A DNA stretch of 46,158 nucleotides, taken from IMG/VR virus record IMGVR_UViG_2859799533_000010, one strand, 5' to 3'. The DNA is from a virus (Duplodnaviria > Heunggongvirae > Uroviricota > Caudoviricetes). The position numbers are program-made. Shown here in pieces: positions 38,401 through 41,400 of the stretch. The stretch's first letter is position 1; every line of letters starts with the position of its first letter.

Positions 38401-41400
38401 GTAAAGTTCTCTGTGGTTACTTACAGCCAGGAGATTTGGTAATCTGCATTCATGCCGTAACAACAGGTGTTCAGCGACGCTGACCACCAGCTGTTGCGAC
38501 AAACGGTTATTTGCCGTTAAACTGTTCATGCGTTAGTTTCTCCACAGACACAAAACGCCACGACGCCCGGAGCTGCACACTCGCGGGCGTCACTCTTTTC
38601 TGGAGCGCAAAAGATTTTGTAGACCAGTGCTGCATGCTCCTGGAGCTTCGAAATTGACAGATACAACTCATCATTAATTGCTGTCTGCTCGTGTGGCTCC
38701 ACTACCCCATCTTCGATTGCCGAACGAATCTGCTTTGAGTAACTCCCGATCTGTTCGATGACTTCCAGCAGGCGCTGGTTTATATCGGCGTTCTCTACTT
38801 CCTCAATTTCAGGAAGCGATACAAACACCCCACCAGCAGACTGTGCGACAGCATCCGCAATGTAGTGAGTGCCAGCCGCGCGCTGTAAAATCATTGCCCA
38901 TCCCAGCGGGAAAATCTGATCGCCATCTGCACGAAGGCGGTTGAATAAAGCGTTCTCTGTTACATCTAGCCACTCAGCAGCTTCAGCGTACCCCCCCGGC
39001 AACGCCGCGATAGTTTTTCTGACAGCTTTCACGTACCACTCAGGCTGTTTTTCTACTTTCCAGTGATGCTTACCCACGGTTAGCCTCATCGTTCTGTGGT
39101 TAAAAATTGAAGGTGTTCTGTTAATCTTTCGGATAGATATCCGGTCTTAAGTCAGATTTCGTAATTGCACCTGACGTGCATTGCTCAAGTTTTTTAGCCA
39201 GCACAAAACTGGCTTTTTTATAACCATTGAAAACCAGCCGTAAATAGCCTGGTGTTGAGCCAACTTTTCCGGCCAACTCGCCCTGCTGTTCTTTGGTTAA
39301 AGAGTCCCAATACGCTTTCATACAATATGTACCTCCGATATACATATTACATGATTGAGATGAACCTTCAAGATACTTGTACCCTATCGGTACAAAGGTT
39401 TTAATTTCGTTATGAAAACAGTCCATGACATCCGGCGGTCTAACGCCAGAAAACTGAGAGATGGTGTTGGCGGGAATTCTTCCTTTGCCACCATGATTGA
39501 TCGCGAGCCAACCCAGACCAGCAGGTTTATGGGAGATGGTGCTACTAAAAATATCGGTGACAGCATGGCACGGCACATCGAAAAATGTTTCGACCTGCCT
39601 GTCGGATGGCTTGATCAAGAACACCAGACAACAAACATCACAAAAAAACCTGATGTTTCAATTACTAACAAACAAATAACGTTAGTCCCTGTCATATCAT
39701 GGGTACAGGCCGGAGCATGGAAAGAAGTTGGCTATTCTGAGGTTGATTTGAGCACAGCAGAAACTTATCCCTGCCCTGTACCCTGTGGCGAAATGACTTA
39801 TATCTTGCGGGTGATTGGTGATTCAATGATTGATGAGTACCGCCCGGGAGACATGATTTTTGTAGATCCTGAAGTCCCTGCCTGCCACGGTGACGACGTT
39901 ATTGCATTGATGCACGATTCAGGCGAAACCACCTTCAAGCGGTTGATAGAAGATGGAACACAGCGTTATCTCAAAGCATTAAACCCAAACTGGCCTGAGC
40001 CTTACATTAAGATTAACGGTAATTGCTCTATAATTGGTACAGTGATTTTCTCGGGAAAACCAAGAAGATACACAATAAAGGCCTAATCAATATTTATGAA
40101 CCTGCTTCGGCAGGTTTTTTTATGCTTGACAATGTACCCATGAGATACATAATGTATCTAAAAGAAACATAACACAGGCAAGATTAAAACAAAATTTGGT
40201 TGTAACACGGCGTATGGCACATGCGTCGTTAGCGGTCTGGTGACGTTAAAGGGGACAATCCACTCCTTGCTCGAGCAAACAAACCAGGTAGCCGGAATGT
40301 GCAAGTCAATGATGATGCTGATAAGACGCCTAACCAGCGTGGCGATTCGGTTTGACGCCTGGGAAGAGACCAGGGTGCAACGATGAGGGCATTTATGGAA
40401 CCGCGACAAAGTGTGGTGCCGTAACTGGCTAAGTGCTCTCAGCGTTGTGGTAATCCGCGAAATGGCGCGGCGGTAAGTATGGCGGGGTTACTCTTTCCCC
40501 GTTGAGGACACCGGATTGTCAGGTTGACCATACGCCTGAGTGACAACCCCACCACAACAGCCACTGCTTTGGCGGTACCAGTTTGTACACTTGCTTCCGG
40601 CTGGTACCGCTCTTTTTACAAAACAGAGAAGAGCATCACCGGACGACGGGCTCATAACCCAATCCATCCGGGCGGCTGCCACCGCAGGTGTTCTTCTCTG
40701 TTTTGTGGAGAAACCAACCGACCTTGCAGGGTCGATATGATTAGGAGCAGAAAAATGGCTAGCGAACGCAGTACTGATGTGCAGGCATTTATTGGGGAGC
40801 TGGACGGCGGCGTATTTGAAACCAAAATCGGCGCAGTTCTCAGTGAAGTCGCTTCCGGTGTGATGAACACGAAAACCAAAGGTAAGGTCTCACTCAACCT
40901 GGAAATCGAACCATTTGATGAGAACCGTGTGAAAATCAAACACAAACTCTCATATGTTCGCCCGACTAACCGCGGGAAAATTTCCGAAGAAGACACCACC
41001 GAAACGCCGATGTATGTCAATCGCGGTGGTCGCCTGACTATTCTGCAGGAAGATCAGGGACAATTACTGACTCTTGCCGGTGAACCTGACGGAAAACTCC
41101 GCGCAGCAGGTCATTAATATCGTTCTTAATTAACCGATTATTTATCTCATCACTGAATATCTTTATATAGTGAGGACTTATTATGTCTCAGAACTTAGAC
41201 GCAACCGCAATTAATCAAATCCATGCCCTTATTTCTGCTCAGGGTGTTAATGAAATTATCAGTAAGATTGGTGCCGATGCTGTGGCATTGCCTGAGAATT
41301 TCCGCATTCATGATCTGGAAAAATTTAATTTAAATCGCTTCCGTTTCCGTGGTGCGCTTTCCACTGCCAGCATCGATGACTTTACCCGTTATTCTAAAGA

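Follow-up and report, generated by a model that had tools for sequence, protein, structure and literature searches.

How does a lambdoid phage that has no N gene carry its early-left operon past terminators? The question is raised by the roughly 600-nt leader (40160-40754) that separates a PL-like promoter from the first early-left gene, yfdP, in IMG/VR virus record IMGVR_UViG_2859799533_000010; the window analysed here is the whole of that 46,158-nt stretch, whose sequence identifies it as a lambdoid prophage of Escherichia coli with immunity of the cdtI / Ayreon / Stx2c / SfV type. Early-left control in lambdoid phages is a textbook case, of which two versions are known: N with nut, and the put RNA. 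The leader RNAs of N-less lambdoid phages bear on this question. A first-pass annotation of the locus had described a hairpin-rich stretch free of open reading frames (ORFs), with a boxA-like element and no N gene, and had proposed as candidates a put-like RNA, a nut region whose N gene was lost, or a small-RNA (sRNA) or riboswitch-like leader. The evidence assembled here supports the view that the PL (+) strand of the leader encodes a structured non-coding RNA that has a function, and not a nut site. Judging from its relatives in other phages the leader is, moreover, a mosaic of RNA modules that move separately and differ in their distribution; we call them A, B, C1, C2 and C3, and all are on the + strand.

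The folding energy of the leader lies well outside the shuffled background on the + strand (z = -6.2, against -4.5 on the - strand), and its GC content is 52-56% between the promoter and yfdP, compared with 33-48% in the flanks. A permissive search of phage genomes revealed that separate parts of the leader recur independently of one another, each module being present in other phages that lack the rest. Thus 40194-40450 recurs in P1, D6, SJ46, phiV10-like and epsilon15-like phages, 40444-40566 in PPompW/Tritos-type phages, 40570-40760 in SfIV and mEp460-type phages, and 40606-40718 in ST64B and a Klebsiella phage. The first-pass description as hairpin-rich was sound, in that the leader is structured beyond chance, but it overlooked the mosaic of modules with separate distributions. 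A view of the leader as an integral part of yfdP was rejected, as the yfdP of K-12 CPS-53 has an unrelated upstream region. The covariance scan against Rfam proposed by the first-pass annotation returned no family: in both gathering and permissive scans of Rfam 15 there was no match within 40160-40754 at E values up to 10, and ARAGORN found no transfer RNA (tRNA) or transfer-messenger RNA gene in the window. The comparative alignment that it also proposed uncovered abundant compensatory base changes in modules A and C2. The literature searched on yfdP/yfdQ, the P1 ban operon, prophage structured RNAs and anticodon-arm mimics does not describe these elements; the Pas sRNAs of a preprint are different, late-region sRNAs.

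It could be argued that what is conserved is not RNA but small protein genes, or an element acting as DNA such as a recombination site or a single-stranded DNA origin. In keeping with such a view, hypothetical proteins are annotated in the leader in some phage records, module B has variable content bracketed by a perfect inverted repeat, and in P1 module A adjoins the helicase gene ban. The leader was indeed free of ORFs as far as ATG starts are concerned, but the claim fails for GTG and TTG starts, which open four mechanical ORFs of 48-83 amino acids (aa): 40158-40409 (-; 83 aa), 40240-40386 (+; 48 aa), 40488-40682 (-; 64 aa) and 40540-40740 (+; 66 aa). Homologues mostly break these frames, either by stops or by frameshifting changes in length, and the two ORFs that overlap module A are intact in just 6 and 8 of 56 homologues; their coding was rejected on the ground that the frames are not conserved. 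As had been claimed, no N gene is present, neither a conserved ORF nor an N-like one having emerged in the leader from the ORF calls and the comparison of homologues. In addition, insertions and deletions fall in loop tips, the G-U pairs are strand-specific, and all 43 adjoining tRNAs, together with the promoters of the inspected loci, lie on the strand of the element. A protein or DNA explanation is thus very improbable. The unconserved overlapping ORFs, the z-score of -6.2, the compensatory changes and the G-U pairs point instead to a non-coding RNA of the + strand, which must be the folded strand because many of these G-U pairs would become A-C mismatches on the other.

Module A (about 40208-40447) is a discrete, mobile, strongly conserved pseudoknotted RNA without an Rfam match, and consists of a core (40208-40374) and a 3' domain. 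The core opens with hairpin H1 (40208-40216 / 40220-40228), which is closed by a GCA triloop, and continues with H2 (40232-40240 / 40284-40292), whose apex is variable, a nearly invariant single strand, GGUAGCCGGAAUGUGCAAG (40287-40305), a variable hairpin (about 40306-40325), H4 (40326-40329 / 40337-40340) with the 7-nt loop yUCACCA, and H5 (40358-40362 / 40370-40374) with the loop GAAGAGA. The pseudoknot joins 40332-40335 to 40349-40352, which read CACC and GGUG in the family; the window carries a compensated pair in its place, UAACCA with GGUUUGA. The 3' domain is a long stem, H6 (40378-40447; CAACGAUGAGGGCA / UGCUCUCAGCGUUG), with a variable apex. H6 is found in 82 of 123 distinct variants of the module, is missing from that of P1, and covaries, one variant reading CAACAGGUAAGAGCA / UGCUCUUUCCGUUG.

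Compensatory changes in module A were already apparent in a three-way alignment. In an alignment of 56 sequences 95.4% of the cells assigned to the fold can pair, as opposed to 26-49% when the partners are slid by one to three columns; 14 pairs and 129 cells are changed on both sides, and none of 500 shuffles reaches the observed score. Support for pairing is similar when the 3' stem is included. For H2a and most of the pseudoknot it comes from bases that do not vary, a single position being compensated. The covariance model of the core, R1, scores 144.6 bits (E = 4e-41) at 40189-40379, the next match in the window reaching 6.7 bits; E values from these models are rough. A helix proposed by RNAalifold between GCACAU of the H1 loop region and AUGUGC of the invariant strand was dropped because strand variants (AAUUUGC, AAUAUGC) are uncompensated, and the local H1 covaries instead. 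Separately, the minimum-free-energy fold pairs 40198-40217 with 40528-40548 (GGUUGU..CGGCGUAUGG with CCAUACGCC..ACAACC), a helix that would enclose module A and most of B and that competes with the covarying H1; the co-occurring copies are nearly identical, and the helix may be a product of chance or an alternative conformer.

The distribution of module A is broad and its surroundings are diverse. With its 19-nt invariant strand, GGTAGCCGGAATGTGCAAG, as query, at least 120 viral contigs with 106 distinct variants were recovered. When one genome per GTDB species was searched with a different anchor, true matches were confined to Enterobacterales, and the first anchor was intact in 21 of the 24 genome matches so obtained. 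The module is carried by 79 phage records, at one place each, among lambdoid phages, P1/P7/D6/SJ46 and phiV10/epsilon15-like phages. It is present in 1,834 of 5,426 complete E. coli genomes (34%), in none of which RefSeq annotates it, and 554 of the places in these genomes are on plasmids, consistent with P1-like phage-plasmids. Its carriers include outbreak strains, Stx phages and, in the ban operon, the classic model phage P1. As a separate observation, a 32-nt sequence under an annotated feature of clustered regularly interspaced short palindromic repeats (CRISPR) in E. coli strain 2012C-4502 (NZ_CP027440.1, 1868888-1868919) is 100% identical to 40223-40254 of the window, and its length is that of a type I-E spacer against module A.

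In P1 the homologue is unannotated and lies between trnI and ban, in the ban operon controlled by P1 C1. A same-strand tRNA abuts the module at a fixed distance in 43 of 124 loci, this being either a tRNA-Ile(CAU) that ends about 14 nt before H1 or a tRNA-Arg(UCU) that starts right after H6; in a phiV10-type phage the tRNA-Arg begins exactly at the end of the module, the position equivalent to 40452. In nine loci without tRNAs that were inspected in detail, the module follows a gene for a repressor of 219-239 amino acids by about 200 nt, with a PL-like promoter between the two, and in some lambdoid phages a convergent gene with a bidirectional terminator stands directly after the core. The first real gene beyond the module varies (Ban, YfdP and others), these genes being unrelated and 180 to more than 1,200 nt away. 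Module A is therefore an autonomous unit, and not the regulator of one particular gene, because its contexts vary from unrelated downstream genes to tRNAs on either side and convergent terminators. The same variety bears on the suggestion of an sRNA or riboswitch-like leader, which was right as to a structured non-coding RNA and weak as to the riboswitch: no aptamer with an overlapping expression platform and no consistent set of controlled genes was found, the module standing before unrelated genes, beside tRNAs and ahead of convergent terminators.

In a few variants the variable apex of H6 recalls tRNA. In L126 (497-551, -), L006, L093 and L097 the 3' stem bears at its tip either a T-arm (GGTTCGATTCC) or a fold resembling a mini tRNA, and one tip variant, from the one homologue scanned, has a weak tRNA-Sec/mascRNA-like Rfam match (E = 0.03). 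The P1/P7 C4 RNA precursor and MALAT1-mascRNA offer parallels to such T-arm-like or mini-tRNA-like tips. The idea that tRNA-like tips are a general trait of the 3' domain was rejected, as they occur in only 4 of the 82 variants.

What, then, became of the boxA-like element, and could the leader be a lambda-type nut region, its N gene lost, at which the string CGCUCUUUUUACAA recruits NusB and NusE? The string resembles the boxA of rrn operons (GCUCUUUAACAA) and that of lambda (CGCUCUUA). It lies at 40608-40621, however, where it is formed by the end of the 3' stem of module C1 and the U-tract that follows. Module C1 (40572-40619) comprises a stem (40572-40581 / 40601-40610), a 19-nt loop and the U-tract UCUUUUUAC (40611-40619), and includes the GGTACC hairpin of the first-pass annotation, GGTACCAG-N19-CTGGTACC, which is indeed present, at 40574-40608. 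The 8-mer core of the string, CGCTCTTT, is at chance frequency, occurring three times in the window against 1.3 expected, a count reached by 17 of 100 shuffles. Homologues read CGCACTTTTTT, CGCAATTTTTT or CGTCCTTTTT in its place yet keep the hairpin and U-run, and the string is base-paired in two covarying helices, those of C1 and C2. Moreover, it is about 450 nt from the transcription start, no N ORF accompanies it, and no boxB follows: the next bases are the 5' strand of the C2 helix and form no 5-bp pentaloop hairpin. A second nut-type site after PR is likewise lacking, no further copy of any module being found in the window with the covariance models of A and C2 and a motif search. A nut region that has lost its N gene is therefore scarcely credible here, and the boxA-like element is better described as part of a hairpin and its U-tract.

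Module C1 has the anatomy of an intrinsic terminator, and termination at this point is predicted from it. Its stem covaries across 33, and subsequently 67, aligned variants (GGCGGCAUCC/GGAUGCCGC, GGCGGCGCC/GGCGCCGC, GGCGGUAAC/GUUACCGCC), in which the U-run is conserved. The window version has a GC-rich stem of 10-12 bp followed by UCUUUUU. A hairpin followed within 3 nt by a tract with five or more T in eight is found in 103 of 124 loci, with medians of 12 contiguous bp, seven GC pairs and a folding free energy (dG) of -20.7 kcal/mol. A consensus terminator scanner overlooked C1 because of its loop of 15-19 nt, which exceeds the usual size. In a phiV10-type phage the unit of module A and tRNA-Arg likewise ends in a C1-like hairpin with CUUUUUAC, and in a minimal lambdoid leader (L218) C2 occurs without C1, beginning about 20 nt past the promoter.

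Directly after C1 the leader folds into module C2 (40612-40712), a structured domain closed by a covarying helix of about 25 bp (40612-40637 / 40687-40712). Within it are a covarying stem, P2 (CCGGA/UCCGG; 40639-40643 / 40667-40671), an invariant segment, GACGGGCUCAUAACCCAAUCC (40645-40665), which forms a GGG/CCC stem (40648-50 / 40658-60) with the loop CUCAUAA (40651-57), and the hairpin P3 (40672-40685). Compensatory changes maintain the long helix, for which 23 pairs are predicted; in C2 seven pairs are changed on both sides, and one pair is evenly split between GC and CG, with 13 sequences each. The arms GCTCTT and AAGAGC, reported at first pass as a hairpin, are both present, but their spacing is 14 rather than 12 nt and homologues do not conserve the local hairpin; the two arms are part of the 5' strand of the long helix, the partner of which is 40687-40712. 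Covariance model R2 scores 118.7 bits (E = 1e-29) at 40611-40731, with no second copy in the window, where the invariant motif is likewise unique (0 expected by chance). Having at least 20 bp of near-perfect double strand, the helix has the makings of an RNase III site, and is predicted to be one.

Over 14 uninterrupted bases, CGGGCUCAUAACCC, the invariant hairpin of C2 is the same as the tRNA-fMet anticodon arm of E. coli (sequence from PMC8887418), an identity that spans the three G-C pairs and the CAU anticodon. C2 thus presents itself, at the level of sequence and predicted fold, as a helix-bracketed RNA that preserves the anticodon arm of the initiator tRNA. The arm is all that is kept of tRNA-fMet, ARAGORN detecting no cloverleaf. 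Its conserved copy is an unusual mimic: the literature searched described no bacterial or phage leader that mimics the initiator-tRNA anticodon arm. A close parallel is the operator of E. coli thrS, a leader hairpin that also copies a tRNA anticodon arm; C2 differs from mimics of the thrS type in copying the initiator arm, with its GGG/CCC stem and CAU.

With its motif as query C2 was found in at least 120 viral contigs. The nearest gene upstream of module C is a cI-like repressor in 69 of 76 scorable loci, the gene that follows is yfdP in 61 loci and encodes a different protein in 26, and module A is upstream in just 39 of 118. R2 also finds diverged C2 copies in the ban operon of P1 (+), between trnT and tciA, where they keep ACGGG-(U/G)UCAUAU-CCCAAUC. 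The helix of these copies (AACAGGUAAGAGCAUU / AAUGCUCUUUCCGUUG) is the same as the 3' stem, H6, of some module A variants, and because it is shared the 3' domain of module A and C2 appear to be versions of one type of helix-bracketed cassette. In P1 (NC_005856) we note C2-type cassettes at 547-668, 991-1108, 1216-1342 and 1496-1574 (+), on the strand of the ban operon between the dicF-like region, trnA/trnT and tciA, two of them with a GGG-xUCAUAU-CCC arm. Two are antisense to the predicted genes plp and upl, which may be annotation artefacts.

Two further modules complete the leader. Module B (40445-40558) is a multi-hairpin domain closed by GUUGUGGU (40445-40452) and ACCACAAC (40551-40558). 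Among the fetched loci about 58 distinct interiors of 58-259 nt share the bracketing repeat GTTGTGGTG...CACCACAAC, the version in the window also occurs without module A in PPompW/Tritos-type phages, and in phiV10-type phages the tRNA-Arg occupies the slot of B, between module A and the C1-like hairpin. From these sequences the inverted repeat looks like the border of an exchangeable cassette slot. B is thus a third recurring type of domain beside the covariation-supported families A and C2. Module C3 (40719-40734) is a hairpin, CGACC-UUGCAG-GGUCG, that is replaced in other variants by GCCC..GGGC and GCGG..CCGC and hence covaries; it is followed by the ribosome-binding site and yfdP.

How might these parts work together? 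Our preferred reading, held tentatively as something a little short of probable, is that PL drives a string of autonomous structured-RNA cassettes that is ended by C1, and that the RNA which reads through is processed in C2. On induction or infection PL would make a structured RNA of about 455 nt, containing A and B, and much of this RNA would stop at C1, its 3' end being predicted to fall near 40615-40619. The functional product would be module A, acting in trans or otherwise independently of context and irrespective of the genes downstream; its invariant single strands would most probably be the means by which it binds a protein or RNA of the host or the phage. Its ends would be fixed by neighbouring processing signals; in other phages, where it abuts same-strand tRNA genes, tRNA processing would set them, excising the module from a polycistronic RNA through RNase P cleavage at the 5' end of tRNA-Arg and 3'-end maturation after tRNA-Ile. 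Polymerases that pass C1 would transcribe C2, whose helix would serve as an RNase III-type processing site. Cleavage there would split the non-coding RNAs from the yfdP messenger RNA and release or expose the tRNA-fMet-like arm, and would have counterparts in the processing stems of RNA operons and in the RNase III site that the N leader of lambda contains. This reading is supported by the observation that C2-type cassettes are not specific to PL, diverged copies being found among the tRNA genes of the P1 ban operon.

Several considerations weigh against this interpretation. That transcripts terminate at C1, are processed in C2 and yield a stable module A species is what we infer, and the C1 loop, at about 15-19 nt, is unusually large for an intrinsic terminator. 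The module A and C2 families were gathered with exact-match anchors, and the invariance of the anchors is in part a matter of ascertainment. Module A is absent from 79 of the 118 C loci and is therefore dispensable for expression of the operon. Finally, most lambdoid loci place module A where nutL or putL would be, right after PL and before terminators and inserted genes, an arrangement that would equally fit a cis-acting modifier of polymerase.

Such a modifier would be a processive antiterminator RNA like the put of HK022, which suppresses termination in cis by way of the beta-prime zinc-binding domain of RNA polymerase: nascent module A or C2 would bind RNA polymerase, with no need of N, and secure read-through of C1, of the terminators of inserted genes and of later early-left terminators. 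In most lambdoid loci module A is indeed directly past a cI-like gene and a PL-like promoter, terminator-like hairpins are downstream of it, no N-like gene is present, and in some phages transcription from PL has to cross the bidirectional terminator of a convergent gene to reach yfdP. A modifier of polymerase would be expected to be independent of downstream genes, and the adjoining tRNAs are compatible with it since put action needs no tethering by way of the transcript (PMC9378689). Put RNAs are about 70 nt long, form two stem-loops and follow both PL and PR (PMC9378689). What the leader shares with putL and putR is an RNA-only element just past an early promoter of an N-less lambdoid phage that is independent of the genes downstream; in contrast to put, module A measures 170-250 nt and C2 about 100 nt, and module A is also found beside tRNAs in P1 and phiV10-like phages. 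No homology to put was detected, blastn against the nun-cI-cro region of HK022 giving chance matches only. R1 and R2, moreover, each identify one copy in the window and none on the PR side, where put has both putL and putR; nor was a PR-side copy noticed by eye among matches on the fetched flanks, which were not checked systematically. In P1 three tRNAs and three ORFs separate module A from the ban promoter, which is 2.3 kb away; the 79 of 118 C1 loci that lack module A have unconserved B interiors; and C2 is downstream of C1 and hence unable to suppress it. Antitermination of this kind is thus unlikely.

A pairing that might have linked module A to C1 was considered in this context. The invariant strand of module A (AGCCGGAA..GCAAG, 40290-40305) is complementary over 13 nt to the C1 loop (CUUGCUUCCGGCU, 40590-40602). 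An antiterminator role for this pairing was rejected because the C1 variant concerned occurs equally without module A and 98 module A loci are without the variant; a complementarity that does not co-occur with module A also tells against a put-like function.

It could alternatively be proposed that module A or B acts as a riboswitch-like attenuator, sensing a signal and setting the fraction of transcripts that stop at C1, thereby gating the early-left genes. The conservation of module A is of riboswitch grade: its junction strands are invariant, its stems covary and have variable tips, and it forms a pseudoknot. Between it and the first gene stands a conserved terminator-like hairpin. In addition, two alternative partners are available to GUUG at 40444-40447, namely CAAC at 40378-40381, at the foot of H6, and CAAC at 40555-40558, in the closing helix of B. 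Modules A and C1 are, however, 200 nt apart with a variable domain between them and no conserved overlap of aptamer and terminator; A occurs without C1 downstream, as in P1 directly before ban or beside tRNAs, and C1 occurs without A. An attenuator is therefore improbable.

Returning to the string of RNA cassettes, comparison with other phage RNAs offers several precedents in part. Position between PL and the first early-left gene is shared with lambda nutL and the N leader, which contains an RNase III site. There, as in C2, a long helix stands just upstream of the first ribosome-binding site. The leader of the window differs from that of lambda in lacking a conserved boxA, boxB and N gene, and in that the C2 helix encloses a tRNA-fMet-like arm. 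Non-coding RNAs that abut same-strand tRNAs are also known as species 1 and 2 of T4, with which there is no sequence relation, and the ban operon of P1 likewise combines tRNA and dicF-like genes; in lambdoid phages, unlike such tRNA clusters, module A heads the PL transcript with no tRNA nearby. GOLLD and ROOL are large, ornate, phage-associated non-coding RNAs that often adjoin tRNAs. Module A resembles them as an ornate, conserved, prophage-borne RNA often found beside tRNAs, but is much smaller, is confined to Enterobacterales and has no Rfam match.

A more speculative extension, which we regard as quite unlikely, is that the early-expressed RNA cassettes, a hitherto unrecognised set carried by temperate enterobacterial phages, constitute an RNA-based device for counter-defence or the takeover of translation, rather than a region for the control of transcription. 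Module A would then represent a new class of pseudoknotted effector RNA, and C2-type cassettes would be excised small RNAs that present the initiator-tRNA anticodon arm as a decoy or ligand. The target of the arm would be a host factor by which it is read: a VapC-type or other anticodon nuclease of a defence system, MetRS, or the 30S P site with IF3.

Whatever their function, at least two RNA families supported by covariation, A and C2, together with domain type B, are absent from Rfam and unannotated in RefSeq. With the covariance models built here thousands of prophages could be annotated, and the models also flag ORFs that are probably mis-annotated, namely the hypothetical proteins of the leader and plp and upl of P1.

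Across 40100-40760 the window is 98-100% identical to its cdtI / Ayreon / Stx2c / SfV-type relatives. Upstream of the leader is a 224-aa ORF for a cI-like (LexA/S24-type) repressor (39412-40086, +), near-identical genes being annotated as repressor or cI in Ayreon and SfV, followed by its intrinsic terminator (40098-40124, +), an 8-bp hairpin (40098-40117) and a T-run that are likewise annotated in both phages. Right after these comes the PL-like promoter (40126-40159, +), for which the first-pass annotation's claim of strength holds: it is a near-consensus sigma-70-like promoter with 11 of 12 consensus matches, TTGACA-16-CATAAT (-35, 40126-40131; -10, 40148-40153), and the same promoter (40126-40153) is annotated in Ayreon. 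From its position we infer a transcription start near 40160. A 17-bp palindrome read from the sequence, AGATACAT-A-ATGTATCT (40143-40159), overlaps the -10 hexamer and is likely to be an operator; similarity to lambdoid phages of other immunity types begins at about 40188, just past the promoter and operator. At the other end the Shine-Dalgarno sequence AGGAG (40744-40748) precedes yfdP (ATG at 40755; 40744-41117 with the Shine-Dalgarno sequence, +), the first conserved gene after the leader and the first of the early-left operon, so that the leader forms the untranslated 5' part of the early-left transcript. RefSeq names it yfdP, and its 120-aa product, as translated from the ORF, has an N-terminus that is not arginine-rich.

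Other RNA elements are present elsewhere in the window. On the PR side (- strand) Rfam identifies a C4 antisense RNA (37981-38068; 82 bits) adjoining isrK (38093-38169; 60 bits), both inside a mechanical 278-aa ORF (37693-38529, -) that in Ayreon bears the annotation 'immunity region'; the pair has the look of an RNA control cassette of the P1 immI or Gifsy-1 kind, here within a lambdoid prophage. Further Rfam matches are IS009 (2117-2315, -; 223 bits) and the ALIL frameshift pseudoknot (34730-34846, +; 120 bits), and because these families are associated with insertion sequences, such elements may be present in or beside the prophage.

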